From NCBI RefSeq assembly GCF_018350175.1, contig NC_058368.1, positions 54,190,001 to 54,254,000 on the forward strand: a stretch of DNA of 64,000 nucleotides. Reading direction: 5' to 3'. The DNA is from Felis catus. Its lineage: Eukaryota. Below, in pieces: positions 4,881 through 62,639 of the stretch; position 1 is the stretch's first letter; every line of letters starts with the position of its first letter. A program made the position numbers and the translations under genes. Below the pieces are notes generated by a model. The model worked only from the letters and a program-made list of their open reading frames with translations, had not been told where the DNA came from and made no database searches.

Positions 4881-6198
4881 TTGATTCACTGCTCTAAGGA
4901 GTATTCTAAAACATAATCATGAAAAAAGGATTTGGGAAAATATTAAGTTAAGCCAGAATTCAGAGCTTAGCTTTGACTTACTAGGGATTCCATAATGATA
5001 TTAATTTCTTCCCTACTAGGTATAGTTTTTATTTTCTCTAAGTAATTAAAAAACATCATGGTGTGGAAAATACTGTTAATAGTAGTATGACACAAATCAG
5101 AAGAAAAAATGATCTAAATTTAGAGATAATACATTATAACTCACATTATCCAAGAGAAAAATAATAGTTGTTTGAAATCATTTGGCTATTTTTCTTTCAT
5201 TACACCCAGATTGCTTTTAATTTTGATTGATTTGACATTATCGTTGAACAAGAAGTCCATTTATTGATGCTGTTATTTTTACTTAACTTTCTATGTCAAT
5301 AATTGCAGTTTCTAAAAAGTGATCCATAACTTCAAAGTGAATGTCTCTTATTACTGATAATGAGATTTGGGCTAGTAGATTTCCTTGCAGAAGAGGACTT
5401 TTCTCATTTTAAGTTGGAGAAAAATTGTTAACTTTTGGCTGTTGGAAACATGTTGAATCATTTTTCTGTAGCTAAATTTTCAGTTAATAAACTGCAAGAG
5501 CTCACAGAGATTAAATTTCAGAAATAATTATTGCATAGTAGTTGAAAAATTGTTTGTTATTAACATTTGCTAGCAATGTTGAAGTAAAATTTATTTAAAT
5601 TGAAGGAGATTTACACTAGGAACTTGTTAAAAACAATTTAATGAAAAAGGCATGAACAGTAAATTTAGGAAAAATTTTAACTTTAGAATGAATAGAGCTG
5701 TGATGGCTTATAATTCTTATGCTCCTGAAGTTTCTTTTAAATGATATAATACATAAATACTATTTTGGTTACACATAGAAAAATTCTTTGGCTACTTTAA
5801 AAAACAGTGAAACTGGCTAATATTTATTTGTCTACTAGGTGAATATCTCCCTATGGGGCTAACACTAAAATAATCATAGTTTCTGCTGTCCAAAAATTCT
5901 TGAGGTAATTGAGTAAATGGGATTTAAATACTGTAGCTAAATAAAATTTAAATAATTGCTTAAGAGAGTATAGAGAAGATGTCAAAGACAGTCAATATAT
6001 AAGTCAAACTAATTTTATTATAATAATTACTATAGGAATTCAGAGAAGGGACAGATCAGATAGGCTTGGTCCAGAATAATGTCACTTTTCAGTAGGAACT
6101 CTACCTCATTTTGAATGTGTTTTCTGGGCTAGAATAGGTAAGCAGTCAGATAGTTATGGGCTGTTTTAAAACTTCTTGAATAAAAATATACTTAGCTT

Positions 6199-28940: not shown

Positions 28941-29469
28941 GAAAGAAAAGAAGGAAATCCTGTCATTTGTGACAACATGGATGGACCTTGAGGGTATCAC
29001 GCTAAGTGAAATATGTCAGACAGAGAAAGACAAATGCCATATGGAATCACTTACGTGTGAAATCTAAAAGAGCTGAACTCATAAAATAAAATGGTGGTTG
29101 CCAGAAACTGGAGGGTAGGGGAAAAGGAAGATATTGCTCAAAAAGTAGAAACTTTCAGTTATGTGATGAGTAAGTTCTGAGGATTTAGTATACACTATAA
29201 TGGTTACTGTTAACCATACTGTATTATATATACTTGAAAGTTGCTAAAATAGTAGATTTTAAAAGTTCTCACTACAATAAAGAAATGGTAATTATATGAT
29301 GGAGGTATTAGCTAACATTACTGTGGTAATAATTTCATAAATGCATAATACCTGTATAATGTATAATGTCGAGTCAACACATTGTACACCGCAAACTTAG
29401 ACAATGTTATGTGTCAATTATATACCTATAAAGCTAAAAATAAAATGACAATTAAAAGGGGAAGAAGAT

Positions 29470-29692
29470 GGGGCGCCTGGGTGGCGCAGTCGGTTAAGCG
29501 TCCGACTTCAGCCAGGTCACGATCTCGCGGTCCATGAGTTCGAGCCCCGCGTCAGGCTCTGGGCTGATGGCTCGGAGCCTGGAGCCTGTTTCCGATTCTG
29601 TGTCTCCCTCTCTCTCTGCCCCTCCCCCATTCATGCTCTGTCTCTCTCTGTCCCAAAAATAAATAAAAAACGTTGAAAAAAAATTTAAAAAA
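29470..29692 (+). mobile_element. Very young CanSINE (youngest felid type)
   Basis: Near-identical to 6199-6408, CpG-rich; TSD AAAAGGGG(G)AAGAAG on both sides. Confidence 0.96.
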
Positions 29693-29886
29693 AAAGGGGG
29701 AAGAAGTTAAGAAATAGAGCTAGTTTAAAAATTTGGCATCAATTCATAAGTGACATTTCTGAGGTCTCTCATTTTTTAATTTCTAGCCCAATGTTTCTAA
29801 CTGAGGAGGAAAAAGATTTATTTGCTTGTTTATGAAGCATGAGAGAGTAGGAAGGCAAAGATAAACTACTTTGAAAACCCATCTTT

Positions 29887-29897
29887 CAAGATGGCGG
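29887..29897 (+). promoter_or_regulatory. YY1 motif at L1 5' end
   Basis: CAAGATGGCGG matches the YY1 consensus known at mammalian L1 5' ends. Confidence 0.7.
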
Positions 29898-30982
29898 AAC
29901 AGCAAAAAGGTTTTTGTGTCTCTCGCATCCATGAAACACAGCCACACCAACACTAAACCATCCTGCACACCCAGAAAACTGATCTGAGGATTAACACAGC
30001 AATCTGCACAACCTGAACCACAGAATTCAGCAGGTATGTAGTGCGGAGAGGTGAACTTGGGGAGAGAAGCTGCCAAGGGCAGGGAGGTGCTTTTGCGGGC
30101 GGAGAGAGGATGGAGACGGTGAGGAGAATACAGGAAAACCACCCCTCCCCAAAAGCAGCTGGAGAGAAAGTGGAAAACTGGAAACAGCTGCAGGGACTGA
30201 GCTAAAAAGGGAGAAAGGAGAAAGGAGAGGGTTTATATTCCATTAAGACTGTAAACAAGGGGAGCACAGAGTCTGAAACTCCGCAGTTCAATACCTGGCA
30301 GTGCTCTTGGGGGGAAGGGCAAATCCCTAGGAGCAGAGTGGAGTCCGGGATGTTCTCAGGCCACACTGGGAAAAGCGGTTCCACTGCTGGAAGGACATGT
30401 GGTAGAGGCTGTGAGGCCACCTGGGCCCAGCAGACCCCAGAAGGTTGCCACATTCGCTGGTGCTGGAACAAGGTTGTTGGGGGTGAAGCCTGGTGCCAGA
30501 TGTGTGTTGTGATTTTCCACAATCCTTGAGGCGCTGCTGCTACACTGTCTCGGGAACTTTTTCTGGGGTGGGCTGGCACCTGGCAGCAGTCTCTGGGCAT
30601 TGGTAACAGCACGATCCTGCAAGCGTTCCTGGGTGCTGCCGGCAACTGGCCATTGCTCAGTGAGACCCTCCATTGCTTGGTGAGAACCTCCGCAGAGGGG
30701 TGGCGCTGGTCAAAGCCACAGTCCCTCAGAAGTGGGGGGCTGGGGCAGCCACATCTTAGACAAAACTGGGGGGGGAGGTGCTGCCTGGGGCTTGGTCACG
30801 GACAGTGTGGAAGCAGGGAGTGGATGGAAGCCAAGGACAAAGGATGGGTGCACGATTGCTGATCAGGGAGAACAGAGTTCTGATACTAGAGACTGAAGAG
30901 GTGGGTGACACCATTTTCACTGCTCCTGCACAAGTGCATACACACTTACAAACGCCACAACAATCCACCCAGTAAGCTAAGC

Positions 30983-30997
30983 AGCGCCATCTAGTGG
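30983..30997 (-). promoter_or_regulatory. CTCF core motif in L1 5' UTR
   Basis: Minus strand reads CCACTAGATGGCGCT, a match to CCASYAGRKGGCRS; motif only, binding not shown. Confidence 0.55.
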
Positions 30998-31606
30998 AGA
31001 ATGAAGTCGTTACACTAAGCTCCGCCCAACTAGGCCAACCTTGCTCTTCAGGAACACAAGTCTCTCCGCCTGCTTAGTTTATGGACTATAAAGCGCTTCA
31101 TAGTTTGACTTCTAAGGGAAAACGAAGTGATTTCAGTTGTATTTCAGTCTGTTCGCTGGTCTATTCAATTTTCTTTCTTTTTTTTCTTTTTTCTCTTTTT
31201 TGTGTCTTTTCTTTTTCTTGAATACAGAAAGAGAAGAAACTCATTTTTAGTTTCAATTTTTATTAAAAATATTTTTCTTTGATTTTTTTCTACTATATTT
31301 TTTACTTTTGTGTAAATTTTTTCAAATTCTATTTTACTTTCATCATTTAAGTTTAGTCAACTTCAGTGTATTCATTTTTTTCAAATTTTCAAACGATTTC
31401 CTTTTTTTCCCCCTTTATTCTCTAATTTATCAAGCCACTTTCAACACTGGGACCAAAACACACCTAGGATCTAGCATCATTTATTCGATTTTGTGTGTGT
31501 GTGTTTTTAATTTTTTAATTTTAATTTTTTTAATTTTAATTTTTTTAATTTTAATTTTTTTTTATTTTAAATTTTTCTACCTCATTATTCCTTTTCTCCC
31601 TTCAAA

Positions 31607-32478
31607 ATGATGAAATGAAGAGATTCACCCCAAAAGAAAGAGCACGAAGAAACGACAGTGAGGGACTTAACCAAAACAGATAAAAGCAAGGTGTCTGAAC
31701 CAGAATTTAGAATCATGATAATAAGAATATTAGCTGGAGTCAAAAATAGATTTGAATCCCTTTCTGTGGAGATACAAAAAAGTAAAAACTAGTTAGGATG
31801 AAATTAAAATGCTATAACTGAGCTGCAATCTCAAATGGATGCATGGTGGCAAGGATGGATGAGGCAGAACAGAGAATCAGCGATATAGAGGACAAACTTA
31901 CAGAGAATAATGAAGCAGAAAAAAGAGGGAGATTAAGGCAAAAGAGCACGATTTAAGAATTAGAGAAATCAGTGTCTCATTAACAAGGAACAACATCAGA
32001 ATCATAGGGGTCCCAGAAGAGGAAGAGAGAGAAATAGGGGTAGAAGCATTATGTGAGCAAATCATAGTGGAAAACTTTCCTAACCTGGGGAAAGACACAG
32101 ACATCAACATCCAGGAAACACAGAGGACTCCCATTAGATTCAACAAAAACTGACCATCAACAAGGCATATCATAGTCAAATTCACGAAATACTCAGGCAA
32201 GGAGAGAATCATGAAGGGAAAAAAAGTCCTTGACCTACAAGGGAAGACAGATCAGGTTTGTAGCAGACCTATCCACAGAAACTTGGCAGGCCAGAAAGGA
32301 GTGGCAGGATATAGTCAATGTGCTGAATCAGGAAAAAGTGCAGCCAAGAATTCTTTATCCAGCAAGGCTGTCATTCAAAATAGAAGGAGAGATAAAAAGT
32401 TTCCCAGACTAACAAAATTTAAAGGAGTTCGTGACCACTAAACCATCCCTGCAAGAAATTTTAAGGGGTACTCTCTGA
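31607..32478 (+). pseudogene. L1 ORF1p (disrupted)
   Basis: ATG at 31607 followed by in-frame stop; C-terminal block TYKGRQIRFVADLSTETWQARKEWQDIVNVLNQEKVQPRILYPARLSFKIEGEIKSFPD (ORF 32230-32412). Confidence 0.9.
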
Positions 32479-32570
32479 GGGGAGAAAACAAATAAATAAA
32501 TACCAAAAGCAACAAAGATTAGAAAGGACCAGAGCCCACCACCAGAAACTCCAGGTCTACAAGCAACATA

Positions 32571-35500
32571 ACAGAAATAAATTCCTATCTTTCAGTACTC
32601 ACTCTAAACATCAACAGACTAAATGCTCCAATCAAAAACATAGGGTAACAGAATGGATAAGAAAACAAGATCCATCTATATGCTGTTTACAAGAGACCCA
32701 CTTTAGACCTAAAGACACCTTCAGACTGAAAGTAAGGGGATGGAGAACCATCTATCATGCTAATGGTCAACAAAAGAAAGAGTAGCCATACTTATATAAG
32801 ACAATCTAGACTTGAAAATAAAGATTATATCAAGAGATGAAGAAGGGCATTATATCATAATTAAGGGGTCTACCCACCAAGAAGACCTAACAATTGTAAA
32901 CATTTATGTGCCAAATGTGAAAGCACCCAAATATATAAATCAATTAATCACAAACATAAAGAAACTCATTGATAGTAATACCATAATATTAGGAGACTTC
33001 AACACCCCACTCACAGCAATGGACAGATCATCTAATCAAAAAATCAACAAGTAAACAATGGCTTTGAATGACACACTGGACCAGATGGACTTAACAGATA
33101 TATTCAGAACATTTTATCCTAAAGCAGCAGAATGTACATTCTTCTCCAGTGCACATGGAACCTTCTCCAGAATAGACCACATACTGGGACACAAATCAGC
33201 CCTTGGCAAGTACAAAAAGATCAAGATCATACCATGCATATTTTCAGACCACGATGCTCTGAATCTTGAAATCAACCACAAGAAAAAATTTGTAAAGGTA
33301 GAAAATACTTGGAGACTAAAGAACATCCTACTAAAGAATGAATGGGCTAACCAAGAAGTTAAAGAGGAAATTAAAAAGCATGTAAGCCAATGAAAATGAA
33401 AACACCACAACCCAAAACCTCTGGGACGCAGCAAATGCAGTCATAAGAGGAATCGAGGCCTTCCTAAAGACGGAAGAAAGATCTCACATACACAACCTAA
33501 CCTTATGCCTTAAAGAGCTGGAAAAAGAACAGTAAATAAAACCCAAAACCAGCACAAGACAGGAAATAATAATGATTAGAGCAGAAATTAATGCTATTGA
33601 AACCAAAAGAACAGTAGAACATATCAACGAACCAGTAGCTGGTTATTCGAAAGAATTAACAAAATTGATAACCCCCCTAGCCAGTTTGATCAAGAAGAAA
33701 AAGGAAAGGACCTAAATAAATGAAATCAAGAATGAAAGAGGAGAGATCACAACCAATACAGCAGAAATAAAAACAATAATAAAGAATATTATGAGCAATT
33801 ATATGCCAATAAAATGGGCAATCTGGAAGAAATGGACAAATTCCTAGAAACATATACACTAGCAAAACTGAAACAGGAAGAAATAGAAAATTTGAGCAGA
33901 CCCATAACAAGTAAGGAAATCGAATTAGTAATCAAAAATTCTCCCAAAAAATAAGAGTCCAGGGCCAGATGGCTTTCCAGGGGAATTCTACCAAACATTT
34001 AAAGAAGAATTAACACCTATTTTCTTAAAGCTGTTCCAAAAAATAGAAATGGAAGGAAAACTTCCAAACTCTTCCTATGAAGCCAATGTTACCTTGACTT
34101 CAAAACCAGACAGACAACCAGACAGACACCCCACTCACTAAAAAGGAGAACCATAGACCAATTTTCCTGATGAACATGGATGCAAAAATCCTCAACAAGA
34201 TATTAGCCAACCTGATCCAACAATACATTAAAAAAATTATTCACCATGACCAGTGGGATTTATACCTGGGATGCAGGGCTGTTTCAATATCTACAAAACA
34301 ATTAACACAATTCATCACATCAATAAAAGGACAAGAACCTTATGATCCTCTCAATAGATGCAGGGAAAGCATTTGACAAAATACAGCAAACTTTCTTGAT
34401 AAAAACCCTCAAGAAAGTAGGGATAGAAGGATCATACCTTGAGATCATAAAAGCCATGTATGAATAACCCAATGCTAATATCATCCTCAATGGGGAAAAA
34501 CTGAGAGCTTTCCCCCAAGGTCAGGAATAAGACAGGGATGTCCACTCTCACCACTGTCATTCAACATAGTATTGGAAGTCTTAGCCTCTGCAATCAGACA
34601 ACACAAAGAAATAAAAGGTATCCAAATTGGCCAGGAGGAGGTCAAACTTTCACTCTTTGCAGATGACATGATACTCTATATGGAAAACCAAAAAAATTCC
34701 ACCAAAAAACCTTCTAGAACTGATTCATGAATTCAGCAAAGTTGTAGGATATAATATCAATGCCCAGAAATCAGTTGCATTCCTATTCACCAACAATGAA
34801 GCAACAAAAAGAGAAATCAAGCAATCAATCCCATTTACAATTGCACCAAAAACCATAAAATACCTAGGAATAAATCTATCCAAAGAGGTGAAAAATCTAT
34901 ACACTGTAAACCATAGAAAGATTATGAAAGAAATTGAAGAGGCACAAAAAAATGGAAAAAGATTCCATGTGTCCAGATAGGAAGGACAAATATTGTTAAA
35001 ATGTCAATACTACCGAAAGCAATCTACATATTCAACGCAATCCCTATCAAAATAACACCAGCATTCTTCACAGCGCTAGAACAAATAATCCTAAAATTTG
35101 TATGGAACTAGAAAAGACCCCAAATAGCCAAAGCAATCTTGAAAAAGAAAACCAAAGCAGGAGGAATCACAATCCCGGACTTCAAGCTACACTACAAAGC
35201 TGTAATCATCAAGACAGTATGGTACTGGCACAAAAACAGACACTCAGATCAATGGAACAGAATAGAGAACCCAGAAATGGATCCACAAACGTATGGCCAA
35301 CTCATCTTTGACAAAGCAGGAAAGAATATCCAATGGAATAAAGACAGTCTCTTCAGCATGTGGTTCTGGGAAAACTGGACAGTGACATGCAGAAGAATGA
35401 ATCTGGACCACTTTCTTTTGTGTACACCATACACAAAAATAAACTCAAAATGGATGAAAGATCTCAATGTAAGACAGGAAGCCATCAAAATCCTCGAGGA

Positions 35501-36246
35501 GAAAGCAGGCAAAAACCTCTTTGATCTTGCCCGCAGCAACTTCTTACTCCACACGTCTCTGGAGGCAAGGGAAACAAAAGCAAAAATGAACTACTGGGAC
35601 CTCATCAAAATAAAAATCTTCTGCACAGTGAAGGAAACAATTAGCAAAACTAAAAGGCAACCAACAGAATGGGAGAAGATATTTGCAAACAACATATCAG
35701 AGAAAGGCTTAGTATCAAAAATCTATAAAGAAAATATCACACTCAACACCCCAAAAACAAATAATCCAGTGAATAAATGGGCAGAAGACATGAATAGACA
35801 CTTCTCTAAAGAAGACATCCAGATGGCAAACTGACACATGAGAAAATGTTCAACATCACTCATCATCAGGGAAATACAAATCAAAACCACAATGAGATAC
35901 CACCTCACACCAGTCAGAATGGCTAACATTAATAGCTTAAGCAACCACAGATGTTGGCGAGGATGTGGAGAAAGAGAGAGGATCTCTTTTACATTGTTGG
36001 TGGGAATGCAAGCTGGTGCAGCCACTCTGGAAAACAGTATGGAGTTTCCTCAAAAAACTAAAAATAGAACTACCCTACGACCCAGCGATTGCACTACTAG
36101 GTATTTATCCAAGGGATACAGATGTGTTGTTTTGAAGGGACACATACACCTCAATGTTTATAGCAGCACTGTCAACAATAGCCAAAGTATGGAAACAGCC
36201 CAAATGTCCATCAATGGATGAATGGATAAAGAAGATGTGGTATATG

Positions 36247-36312
<66 letters not shown>

Positions 36313-36540
36313 ACACATATATATGTGTGTATATATATGTATATATATATATATATACATATATATGTGTGTATATATATATATATATGTTTATATACAC
36401 ACACACACAATGGGGTATTACTTAGCAATCAAAAAGAATGAAATCTTGCTATTTGCAACTACATGGATGGAACTGGAGGATATTATGCTAAGTGAAATTA
36501 GTCAGAGAAAGGCAAATATTATATGACTTCACTCATATAA
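32571..36540 (+). pseudogene. L1 ORF2p (endonuclease, RT, C-terminal; disrupted)
   Basis: Start codon lost; EN motifs GDFNTPL, SRIDHILGH, FSDH; RT FADD at 34656-34667; 231-aa C-terminal ORF 35139-35834; CWRGCGE; many frameshifts and stops. Confidence 0.93.
36247..36409. repeat. Compound (GT)n(AT)n...(AC)n microsatellite inside L1
   Basis: ~160 bp alternating purine-pyrimidine tract, starting (GT)13 and ending (AC)n. Confidence 0.95.
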
Positions 36541-36815
36541 GGACTTTAAGAGACAAACCGGATGAACATAAGGGAAGGGAAACAAAAGTAATACAAAAAC
36601 AGGAAGGGGGACAAAACATAAGAGACTCATAAATATGGAGAACAAACAGAGTTACTGGAGGGTGTGTGTGTGTGTGTGTGGGGTGGGCTAAATGGGTAAG
36701 GAGCACTAAGCAATCTACTCCTGAAATCATTGTTGCACTATATGCTAACTAATTTGGATGTAAAATAAAATAAAATAAAATAAAATAAAATAAAATAAAA
36801 TAAAATAAAATAAAA

Positions 36816-37208
36816 AGTACATGAAGTACAAAGGAAGAAAGATAAAAATGATGGTTGACAGATGTTGGGGGAAGTCATCAAAAAGACACGACCGCTGGTT
36901 GACCCCTTAGCTGGATCCTGGCAATTGCAGGGTCCTCACCTCCTCCCCTATCCTTGGAATGTAGGTTCCACTTGCCTTCCCTGCTCCAAGAATTTGTCCC
37001 AAGAACATAGCCTTGAGATAGTGATGTGGTACTGAGACCATCTAGATGGTATATGTGATTGAACCCAGTTAAGACCTCTATATAAACTTTCAAGATTTGG
37101 CAAGTAGGCATGGGGATCTACTTGACTTGCTGCTGCCCAAGACAAACCTTATATATAAGTTCCCTTTGTGTATTAAAACTTACATCTACCAACAACAAAA
37201 ACAAAAAA
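36816..37208 (+). other. L1 3' transduced segment with second A-rich tail
   Basis: Non-L1 sequence after the L1 tail; ATTAAA 37172-37177; A-rich tail 37191-37208; then right TSD GAAAACTCATCTTTC 37209-37223 matching GAAAACCCATCTTTC 29873-29887. Confidence 0.85.
36863..37191 (+). mobile_element. ERV-like LTR (U3-R only) within the transduction
   Basis: Starts TGTTGGGGG; TATAAA 37081-37086; ATTAAA ~90 bp later; cut at CA ~14 nt after the signal; family not identified. Confidence 0.6.
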
Positions 37209-38257
37209 GAAAACTCATCTTTCCTTACCTTTGGATGGGTCTGCTTCCTCTCTTTCACTTTTTTTGAAGCATTTCAGGTATGAACATAGAAGGAGAATCA
37301 GGAAACAGAATACACTAAAATTCTGTTTTATTTACCACATGGTTAAATGTGTACTGTTAGTGGAATTCATGAACTCTATACAATTTAGTCTACCCTCCCT
37401 GTGCAAATAGCCATATTATAAGCAGAAAACCTGAGATGGAGACAAGATGGTCAGTTTGTTAGTTCAGAACTAGTGTTTGTCTATTTCTAGTATACAGGAC
37501 TTAAGTTTATCTAAAATTGTAGACAAGCCTTTCCTACCAACCAAATAATGCTCTGTTCTTTACAAACAATCGCAGTTTGGAGTCCTGTTTAATTTTCTCA
37601 TGAAGACAAACAGGAAGGGGAAGAAGTGAAATTCTTAAGACTGTGATATAAACAATTGCCCAATGAAAAGATGTAGACTGTTATAGCCAGGTCCTCTCTG
37701 GCCCTTTCACTCTTTCATGCTCTTCTTTTCCTGGAATTAAACCAGAAGGAAATTAATCTGGTTAGCAGGAATTTCTCTTGTTTAAAGATTATTTACAAGA
37801 AGGAAGAAAAACTATACAAAATGTTTCCTTGGGTAACAGCATAAACTGAAAATATCCAAGTCTCAGTCAGCATTTCGAGCATGTGTGACAACTCTTGTTG
37901 GAAGGTCCGCCATGGCTCAAGTCTTTAAGTTGGGAAGATAGAAGGACCGGATTGACTGGGAATATCTAACTTTTCAATTCACAGTAAGAAATCAACTGTA
38001 TAATGAATTCTGGCACTTCCAGATTCAAGAAAACACCAGCAATATGCACTAGATTCTCCCCTTCTGCCTATTTTTCTCTTAACTAAAAAGTCAGTGAAAT
38101 CTTTAGTTTGACATATCATCAGGAGATCTGGTTTTATCTAATTTTAGATTTCTCCTCTCACTTTGTCTGAGTTCTGTTGATTCCTTCTCTGTTTCTTGGT
38201 CTTTCTGTGGAACATTTTCTTTACTTTCCTAAGAACTTTGCAGTAGGTTTTTAGATA

Positions 38258-38480
38258 GAGCGTGGAATGCGGGGGATCTGATCCCAGGTCGGGTGCTTCC
38301 TTTGTGGATTTTCATGTAAGTCATTTAACCTCCCAGTCTCTTGCTTTTTTCTCTCTCTAAATGGGACTTAAAAGTGACAACTTCATGGGGTTGACATGCA
38401 GATGAAAAGAGTTAATAAATGAAATGTGTTTAGAAAGGTTTCTAGCACATCAGAACTGCTATGCACATTTTAGATACTAT
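38258..38480 (+). mobile_element. MIR
   Basis: GTAAGTCATTTAACCTCCCAGTCTC...TCTAAATGGGA...CTTCATGGGGTTG...AGAGTTAATAAATGAAATGTGTTTAGAA. Confidence 0.7.
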
Positions 38481-38643: not shown

Positions 38644-39056
38644 TGTACTGGACATCATGGCCATGATTAATCCAACAACCATTGCCCCCTACCTTGTAAA
38701 TAGAATCCAGTTTCCTTTTAGCGAATTCTCTCTCTACCACCTTTAGGTACAACTTGGCAGAAGGTGATTTCTTCCCCTCAAGTCTAATTGGGAATTCTCA
38801 GAATTCTGAGAATTCCAAGTAGTGGGCAGTGGGCAGTGGGCAGAGTGACAAATGGAAATGGTTGGACCTGTACATTCCACCTGGATGAATTTCTCAAGTA
38901 GCTCCTTCTAACTTAGACTGTAAACACTACCTGATTGCTACCTGAATTTTCCTCTTAGTCCTGAGCGCTCCTTCTATATTCATCCTATATTCATTTACTC
39001 AAACTTGGCGAGAGTAAACTTCTGCTACTCAAAACTTCATGTATCCTACCTGATAT
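38644..39056 (+). mobile_element. Ancient ERV-L/MaLR-type solo LTR (LTR16/LTR33-like)
   Basis: TG start; 3' end AACTTGGCGAGAGTAAACTTCTGCTACTC...ATCCTACCTGATATA resembles old ERVL LTR ends. Confidence 0.45.
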
Positions 39057-60374: not shown

Positions 60375-61035
60375 AGAATGCAAGCTGGTGCAGCCACTCT
60401 GGAAAACAGTATGGAGGTTCCTCAAAAAACTAAAAATAGAACTACCGTACCACCCAGCAATTCCACTACTAGGCATTTATCCACGGGATACAGGTGTGCT
60501 GTTTTGAAGGGACTAATGCACCCCAATGTTAATAGCAGCACCATCAACAATAGCCAAAGCATGGAAAGAGCCCAGATGTCCATTGATGGATGAATGGATA
60601 AAGAAGATGTGGTATATTTACAAAGGAGTAGTACTCTGGTTTCTCTTCAGATCGTATATACAATGGAGTATTACTCAGCAATCAAAAAGAATGAAATCTT
60701 GCCATTTGCAACTACATGGATGGAACTGGAGGGTATTATGCTAAGTGAAATTAGTCAGAGAAAGACAAAAATCATATGACTTCACTCTTCACTCATTTAA
60801 GAGACAGAACAAATGAACATAAGGGAAGGAAAACAAAAATAATATAAAAACAGGGAGGGGGACCAAACAGAAAAGACTCATAAATGTGGAGAACAAACTG
60901 AGGGCTACTAGAGGGGTTGTGGGAGGGGGGATGGGCTAAATGGGTAAGGGGCACTAAGGAATCTACTCCTGAAATCATTGTTGCACTATATGCTAACTAA
61001 TTTGGATGTAAATTTTAAAAAATAAAAAATAAAAT
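60375..61035 (+). mobile_element. 5'-truncated felid L1 3' end
   Basis: Collinear with 36004-36770 of the near full-length L1 in this window; A-rich tail ~61017-61035. Confidence 0.95.
60631..60658 (+). pseudogene. RNU5: U5 snRNA 5' fragment (retrocopy, about nt 1-28)
   Basis: TACTCTGGTTTCTCTTCAGATCGTATA (60632-60658) equals nt 2-28 of mammalian U5 (ATACTCTGGTTTCTCTTCAGATCGTATAAATC) as recalled; absent from the homologous position of the other L1 copies here. Confidence 0.88.
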
Positions 61036-62639
61036 ACCCCCCCAAAAGATGGAAAATAATTTATTTGAAAAAGCCAATACTTTTTATACTTAACAAGCTA
61101 ACATATACACCATTTAGTCCTGTTTTTCTTCATGATGCATGTGACCTGGAAAGGTATGCCATGCACTGGCTTATGAGTAATAATAGTTTTCCCTAATCTG
61201 CACTCCGCCTCTTCCTTTTTGTGCATATTCCCCTTGATTAATGAACTTTTCTGTTTTCACTCCTTTTCTCCCCTATACTGTCTGCTGTTATTTTTTGTGG
61301 GAAGAGGCAGGGACAAAGCGTTCAATTATCTATTGACCTCTTGATCTATTTATTTATTTATTTATCTTTATTTTGGTCTCTATCTCGGGTATTTTAATAA
61401 TAGCCACTGACATAGGTTTGATGATGGCAATGAGACTTTTCTTTGCACATTTTGTCTATATGCCCTTACCTCCTATTCACTACAGAGTTTGATAAAGAAG
61501 ATTGAGAGGTTAAAACTCTTTGAGTCTACAGTTTCTGGAAAGAGCATTTTGTTTGCCAATATTTGCAATCTATTAAGCCAAGGTGTCCAACAACCGGTAG
61601 TGGGTGTGGTGGGCAGCTTACATGGAGGTCTTTACTCAGTATATTATATCAGGTGTCATCCACCCACAACCCTTGAACTGGCTCTGCCTAAAAGATAGTG
61701 AAAGACAGACGAGACAGGAAATTCCTACCCCATTCTGTGTCTCTTTTTTTCTTCTTAGGAAAACCCACTTGGTATGGAATCTGTGGTAGAAGGGTGTTTT
61801 CTCTTTTGATATAGATTCAAAATATTTCACCACTATTTTTCACAAGTCTATGTAAAGGCCCATGGCATTGAACCAAATAGCTGCCTCTCCCTTATTGAGG
61901 ACAGTTAAGAAAAAAGATCAAAAGCACTATAATTTTCGAGTGTGTGCAAATTTTGAACAAAATAGGAAAGATTACTTTACCTCAATAGTTAATTTTAAAT
62001 AAAAACGCTTGCTTTTATGGCAATCATTTATTTAATTTTTAAATATTTTTGGATCATAATTATCATACTAAAATCCGTGTTAATATGACAGAGAAATTTA
62101 ATAGTCCTTTTATGGACTTAAAAAAATGTTATCCCAGTATACATCATTTAAAATTCTTCTGAAATGGTTAGTACAAATTCTATAGAACTTGGATGGGGTT
62201 TTAGCATGGCTTTAGTTTAAAAATTATTCTTAAACACGGCCATTATCATATTAAATGCATAGCTGCTCTATTACCACTTTTTTGAAGCACTGATCTCAAC
62301 AATAAGTTGAGAAAATCATTCTCACTCATAAAAGTCCATTTAAATTTAGTGGTGTGAACATCCCATTTACTTTAAAGAAAACCCCTTCTTATTCAAAACA
62401 TTTAGACAAAAAATTACTTCACACAAAGAAGTTAAATACCACTGTTTAATGTTTTATTGCAGCACTGGGAACATTAAATAAATAACAATGGAAATAAAGG
62501 AGGGCAGAAGGTCTGTTAAGCAGCCTGGACTTTATTTACACAAGAGACTGTTGAAATTTATGCTCAGGTTACTGAATACCAATTTATATAACAGCTGAAT
62601 ATGTGGTTGTCACATTTAATTCTTTAAGAAATCTGCTTT

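Follow-up and report, generated by a model that had tools for sequence, protein, structure and literature searches.

A decayed L1 in the cat genome with a 3' transduction that probably ended at the poly(A) site of a long terminal repeat

We analysed a 64,000-nucleotide stretch of the Felis catus genome (assembly GCF_018350175.1, contig NC_058368.1, positions 54,190,001 to 54,254,000 of the forward strand; hereafter the window, whose own numbering is used throughout), mammalian DNA rich in repeats, and found in it a long interspersed element 1 (L1) that carries a 3' transduction. Behind its own tail, the L1 is followed by a 47-bp spacer, by a unit resembling the long terminal repeat (LTR) of an endogenous retrovirus (ERV) and by a second A-rich tail, and one target-site duplication surrounds the whole. 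We propose, with a probability of roughly 0.7, that a single L1 event produced this structure by copying a read-through RNA from a source L1 located 47 bp upstream of an LTR on the same strand, the RNA having been cleaved at the poly(A) site of that LTR. From its motifs, the unit appears to be the U3 and R regions of an ERV LTR, whose U5 region would have been lost through cleavage at the R/U5 border. The parts of the insert are as follows.

29870 to 29877, plus strand: L1 endonuclease-like target TTT/GAAAA, read in the sequence against the consensus in PMC13141329 and PMC5016936
29873 to 29887, plus strand: left 15-bp copy of the target-site duplication, from the sequence match and chance controls
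29888 to 31607 (end approximate), plus strand: L1 5' untranslated region (UTR), GC-rich to about 31100 and T-rich after, upstream of open reading frame 1 (ORF1)
31608 to 32450 (bounds approximate), plus strand: L1 ORF1 remnant, Transposase_22 match with E 1.7e-10, about 7 breaks
32565 to 36530 (bounds approximate), plus strand: L1 ORF2 remnant, Exo_endo_phos and RVT_1 matches, about 18 breaks up to 36230
36531 to 36763, plus strand: L1 3' UTR, complete to the terminus common to two other copies, by alignment with window positions 60670-61100 and with contig L001 (see below)
36764 to 36815, plus strand: first tail, (AAAAT)n, read in the sequence, containing 10 AATAAA hexamers
36816 to 36862, plus strand: 47-bp non-L1 spacer, putative flank of the source locus, with GATAAA at 36841
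36863 to 37191 (37194 in an alternative reading), plus strand: LTR-like unit, putative U3-R, recognized by motifs, starting with TG and ending at CA 37191
37081 to 37086, plus strand: TATAAA, TATA box-like, 91 nt ahead of ATTAAA
37172 to 37177, plus strand: ATTAAA, poly(A) signal, read in the sequence
37189 to 37199, plus strand: alternative end of the unit, an inverted repeat (37189-37194) and 5 nt matching 36858-36862 at 4/5, read in the sequence
37192 to 37208, plus strand: second A-rich tail, 17 nt with 14 A and 3 C
37209 to 37223, plus strand: right 15-bp copy of the target-site duplication, from the sequence match and chance controls

The two copies of the target-site duplication are identical at 14 of 15 positions and enclose the broken 6.9-kb L1, the first tail, the spacer, the LTR-like unit and the second tail, an insert of 7.3 kb. 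On both strands of the window, no other site comes within two mismatches of the left 15-mer; if one mismatch at most is allowed, no pair shared by 29780-29905 and 36700-37800 is longer than this one, the runner-up having 12 nt. Of 3000 random 15-mers drawn from the window, 6 met such a match in a random 1 kb, and the left 15-mer was matched in none of 2000 shuffles of 36760-37760. The duplication encloses all parts of the insert and its match is far beyond chance, which favours a single insert. A preliminary description of this stretch, made from its letters, had placed the duplication about 390 bp beyond the (AAAAT)n tail; all of its coordinates were reproduced, and the distance from the first tail to the right copy is 393 nt. 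Apart from the 15-mer, no direct repeat of at least 10 nt was found right behind the first tail in comparison with the 5' edge of the L1. The left target site, likewise already described as L1 endonuclease-like, differs by one purine change from the endonuclease consensus TT/AAAA (PMC13141329, PMC5016936). The single mismatch in the 15-bp duplication fits the age of the L1 estimated below (P 0.55 for at most one mismatch).

A longer duplication in the left flank was considered as well. The spacer positions 36832-36846 resemble 29849-29865 at 15 of 17 columns with a gap, a likeness that was matched or bettered by 36 of 3188 window segments and by 22 of 2000 shuffles; this candidate was rejected, being post hoc, purine-rich and out of register at its ends.

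Sequencing runs contain words sampled from 36816-38300 (0.97-0.98 of 152 words in 20 of the 24 runs listed), indicating that the spacer, the unit and the 3' junction, which the sample covers, are not an assembly artefact; the L1-spacer and 5' junctions fall outside it. Fourteen of these 20 runs may themselves be a source of the assembly, according to their flags; the remaining six, which lack this flag, come from four studies under two organism labels. Three listed runs from a third organism contain 0.00-0.04 of the words, which counts as no evidence.

The insert thus delimited has the hallmarks of a partnered 3' transduction, namely a complete L1 3' end with its own tail, a cargo, a second signal and tail, and one outer duplication at an endonuclease-like site. 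Two tails with DNA between them are the working definition of such an event in PMC12350158, and the poly(A) signal of transduction donors is reported to lie 10-40 nt before the tail (PMC9311842), a range that includes the 14 nt between ATTAAA and the CA that adjoins the second tail.

The identity of the element as an L1 was established by Pfam matches to Transposase_22, Exo_endo_phos, Exo_endo_phos_2 and RVT_1 in 5 of the 12 fragments scanned, and with a 5' UTR, remnants of both ORFs and a complete 3' end it is near full-length, as had been described. The breaks in ORF1 and ORF2, counted heuristically, and a longest remaining open stretch of 240 aa indicate that the L1 is dead. L1 similarity ends at 36763 in all three copies compared, which are the focal one, a second copy in the window and a copy on L001, so that 36816-37191 is foreign to L1. 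Comparison of the 3' part with the second window copy gave a Kimura divergence of 0.093-0.105; halving it and dividing by each of the three rates used in PMC4373062 yields an age of about 22, 10 or 4 million years, a figure that leans to the upper side because the two copies may belong to different subfamilies.

As to the copies used for comparison, the second L1 (60376-61011) is 5'-truncated, of a similar subfamily, and starts right after the tail of a short interspersed nuclear element (SINE); no clean duplication was found for it, either alone or paired with its SINE. L001 is a 636-bp contig from a Cellulomonas carbonis assembly; its sequence is the 3' end of a carnivore-type L1, with 87-91% likeness to the focal one, and it is most likely a contamination of that assembly. 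Within the focal L1, a (TG)n(TA)n expansion at about 36247-36410 in the ORF2 remnant and a (GT)n run at 36662-36680 are absent or short in the second copy, and the 5' UTR contains a 20-bp tandem duplication at 30651-30690 (17/20 alike) that could tag the source element a second time.

Between the two tails there is non-L1 DNA, with the spacer and the unit following the L1 terminus. Compared with the rest of the window, 36816-37195 gave no match below E 0.068, that is, no second copy of spacer or unit, and together with the stop of the L1 alignment at 36763 this agrees with the 47 bp of unique DNA noted earlier. No purine run of at least 6 nt occurs within 20 nt of the TG that opens the unit; the longest run, at 36830-36842, is 20 nt away. 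As no purine tract adjoins the TG, internal sequence of a provirus is excluded as the origin of the spacer, which fits a genomic flank rather than a proviral transcript. The start of the spacer (36814-36829) shows a 7-bp direct repeat with copies 2 bases apart, possibly by chance.

In the unit, a TG start, a TATA box and a poly(A) signal occur in the order expected of an LTR (features per PMC4373062), and the TG at 36863, TATAAA, ATTAAA, the CA about 14 nt on and the second A-rich tail were all confirmed at the positions first given for them. Within the window, a TATA-like motif lies 60-120 nt upstream of only 10 of 348 hexamers. The unit has a GC content of 0.45, higher than that of the spacer (0.32) and of the window as a whole (0.37). 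It may resemble a carnivore class I LTR family with a longer U5 (CarLTR1-type). These features make an ERV LTR the probable identity of the unit, and they bear on another explanation, in which 376 bp of unique DNA were transduced and look like an LTR by chance. No homologue of the unit was obtained, Rfam gave no family near threshold (two matches were far below it), and the pattern of TATA, hexamer and CA occurs at seven places in the window, both strands included, two of them overlapping. Chance alone, however, would have to supply the TG start and the inverted repeat opposite it, a TATA box in range and the raised GC content, and we regard this explanation as barely credible.

Taking the anatomy and the L1 boundaries as observed, and read-through, priming on the tail and duplication from established L1 biology, we propose the following course of events. 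Downstream of the source L1, at a distance of 47 bp, there would have been a class I ERV LTR on the same strand, either solo or the 5' one, and transcription would have passed the weak poly(A) site of the L1 itself. The RNA would then have been cleaved about 14 nt past the ATTAAA of the LTR, presumably at the R/U5 border, and polyadenylated. At the new site, the L1 endonuclease would have nicked TTT/GAAAA, the second tail would have served to prime reverse transcription, and copying would have continued to the 5' end of the L1, the 15-bp duplication being the result. Afterwards both ORFs would have decayed, the first tail may have expanded to (AAAAT)n, and the second tail may have gained CAA repeats and, with them, the false look of a closed LTR end. 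The preliminary description had proposed a source L1 upstream of an ERV LTR whose poly(A) signal was used; the transduction stands, with every hallmark that the window can display, and the putative LTR is supported by its motif anatomy. It had also proposed that a U3-R promoter cassette lacking U5 was moved by L1. Here too, movement by L1 stands, while the loss of U5, which like the identity of the LTR and the position of the source is what we infer, has a competitor in the end structure of the unit.

Several observations weigh against this proposal. The 10 AATAAA hexamers of the first tail, a point that had not been raised before, should hinder read-through unless they are later arrivals; they probably grew after insertion, because the other two L1 copies have short tails. 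The putative R region does not fold more stably than shuffled sequence (z -0.02 and 1.37). MLV-type LTRs have a stem-loop where R begins, and a hairpin does form here at about 37099-37137, but 97 of 200 shuffles fold equally well. A search with a pattern of the unit gave no exact match in metagenome, viral and prokaryote genome contigs, sets that are nearly free of carnivore DNA where controlled. A control pattern for the L1 3' end was absent from the viral contigs and found once, on the stray 636-bp contig, in the genome contigs, the metagenome set having no control; with almost no carnivore DNA in the controlled sets, these empty scans say nothing. Also against it stands the end of the unit, where a perfect 6-bp inverted repeat links the start at 36863 with an end at 37194, and the five bases on either side of 36863-37194 agree at 4/5.

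Judged by the inverted repeat and the flanks, the unit may be a closed LTR in which U5 is minimal or absent, a possibility that had likewise not been raised before. It had been stated beforehand that a 4-6 bp duplication of the unit's own and a continuation past 37191 would speak against a cassette cut at the poly(A) site. This was found in part, since the inverted repeat extends to 37194 and the flanks match at 4/5, but the end so defined lies 17 nt after the hexamer, inside an A/C tail. When the C residues of the second tail were rearranged, the inverted repeat appeared in 103 of 680 arrangements, and the repeat together with the flank match in 11 of 680. The latter figure overstates the rarity, because slippage correlates the C positions in a CAA/A tail. 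Four of the six bases of the inverted repeat are already supplied by the sequence before the second tail, and A/C tracts like this tail number 12 in the window, the focal one included. The reading as a closed LTR is weighed down by the mere 17 nt after the hexamer, by the four bases that come free and by the slippage.

A closed end could have arisen in two ways. Firstly, the transduction may have run to the ATTAAA of the LTR as proposed above, with a source LTR that already closed 17 nt past the hexamer, its U5 being natively short or deleted between short repeats, so that it was copied whole, both inverted ends and its own 5-bp integrase duplication included, and the RNA was cleaved about 22 nt past the hexamer. 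Besides the inverted repeat and the flanks, this agrees with the one mismatch in five, an expected number for the age of the insert (at 10% divergence, one or none has P 0.92), and with a cleavage distance that again falls within 10-40 nt (PMC9311842). It nevertheless requires an LTR with almost no U5, and places the whole match in a CAA/A tail with correlated C positions, of a kind repeated elsewhere in the window. Retroviral LTRs normally have tens of bases past the hexamer, and the family that the unit may resemble has a longer U5. We consider this course unlikely.

Secondly, there may have been two events, in which an L1 arrived with a 47-bp transduction and a retrovirus later integrated at the junction of spacer and tail, produced a 5-bp duplication and recombined to a solo LTR. 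The same inverted repeat and flanks argue for it, and removal of 36863-37199 does leave a coherent short transduction, with the variant hexamer GATAAA 16 nt ahead of a 9-nt A tail at 37200-37208. Moreover, felid class I ERVs are reported to have integrated from the Miocene to the Pleistocene (PMC4373062), which overlaps the estimated age of the L1. Yet this course requires an LTR devoid of U5 and, in addition, a virus that hit the junction to within a few bases. CpG decay in the unit also appears no less advanced than in the L1 (observed/expected CpG of 0.12, from 2 sites, compared with 0.29 in the L1 5' UTR), a comparison that is weak without a consensus. We assign it only a small probability.

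The proposed single read-through RNA also has to be set against a chimera of two RNAs, in which reverse transcription started on an unrelated transcript that had been ended by an LTR poly(A) site and then changed template to an L1 RNA at its 3' tail, or the two were ligated. The outer anatomy would be identical, and template switching has been named as a source of apparent transductions in SVA elements (PMC12593883). The switch, however, would have to fall exactly at a complete L1 3' end with the tail kept, whereas read-through accounts directly for the complete end and tail and is common; a chimera is therefore highly improbable in our view. Failure to find a parent L1 would not prove it, because 24 of 27 transductions in the dog are parentless (PMC13141329).

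Three further candidates were rejected. A second L1 bluntly inserted at the edge of an older LTR retrocopy would need a duplication-free insertion exactly at the junction, and was set aside by parsimony. A break-repair patch mimicking a transduction, dismissed by inference, leaves a hexamer, tail and duplication in register unexplained. An ERV pseudogene processed by L1, of the HERV-W type, is contradicted by the L1 that stands upstream, with neither a purine tract nor internal ERV sequence before U3.

Around the insert, a SINE with its own 14-bp duplication occupies 29454-29706, 170 bp upstream of the L1; it is younger than the L1 and 98% alike over 149 nt to a SINE at 6198. A perfect 26-bp palindrome is present at 38791-38816. 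A Pfam search for host genes gave no match in 132 of 151 stop-free frames of at least 62 aa outside the main repeats, a search that short exons would escape; the 19 frames dropped mostly overlap SINEs.

The capture of an LTR, put forward in the preliminary description as a step beyond what was known, turns out to have a published counterpart in the mouse. The Lama2 dy-Pas mutation is a nearly full-length L1MdTf with a 3'-transduced IAP LTR, polyadenylated inside that LTR (Gagnier et al. 2019, PMC6466679), and resembles the cat insert, on the proposed reading, in having an ERV LTR borne on an L1 copy and polyadenylation within that LTR. In the mouse source, however, the L1 itself contains the IAP, some 700 bp short of the L1 3' end, and the copy is without that end (PMC6466679), whereas the cat insert has a complete L1 3' end and tail and a 47-bp spacer ahead of the unit. 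The mouse source has been identified (PMC6466679), in contrast to the presumed one of the cat insert. Neither a felid case of LTR transduction by L1 nor a description of the LTR family or its motifs was found in the open literature, subscription journals and supplementary transduction tables being outside that scope; such tables could contain more examples with an LTR at the end.

Among human L1 insertions, 466 of 5,311 (8.8%) carry a transduction, 82% of these at the 3' end (PMC12350158); about 1.8% do so in the dog under stricter filters (PMC13141329), where repeat-rich cargo would be under-counted because the pipeline needs 25 bp of unmasked sequence. The cat insert resembles the partnered 3' transductions of these sets (PMC12350158, PMC9311842, PMC13141329) in its order of L1, tail, foreign DNA, second signal with tail, and one duplication, and its 376-bp cargo falls within the reported 8-997 bp (PMC9311842). 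Different from the published examples, which are young and polymorphic with mapped sources, it is old and broken, with a putative source. With processed pseudogenes of HERV-W it would share an LTR ending in U3-R that was copied by L1 machinery, with a poly(A) tail, a TT/AAAA target and a duplication of 5-15 bp (PMC5016936). In that system, L1 acts in trans on RNA of the ERV itself, whose internal sequence stands before U3 (PMC5016936); in the cat insert, that place is taken by the L1 and by a spacer that lacks a purine tract. The SINE-R part of SVA elements is similar in that a non-LTR retroelement took its 3' part from an ERV 3' LTR and ends in an A tail (PMC12593883); unlike SVA, an amplified composite family (PMC12593883), the cat insert is one copy in the window.

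The comparison with SVA invites the idea that in some felid L1 lineage the U3-R of an LTR took over the role of 3' end, and that the lineage, as an autonomous equivalent of SVA, carried a U3 promoter cassette with a TATA box to many sites. Were it so, the 47-bp spacer would tag the family; both of the other L1 3' ends aligned are without the cassette, and we hold such a lineage to be very unlikely.

The type of event is already published in the mouse, and the cat insert is an old, well-formed further case, probably ended by the poly(A) site of an LTR. Its product is a dead fossil with no function indicated, and one insertion of this kind is of little consequence if it has no siblings. Through the 47-bp spacer the source locus could be traced, and the insert, scored as present or absent, could provide a marker for comparing felids. 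If the proposed course is true, this insert adds a further case in which LTR promoter/enhancer sequence was moved without integrase, and what repeat annotation records as a "truncated solo LTR" may be L1 cargo.

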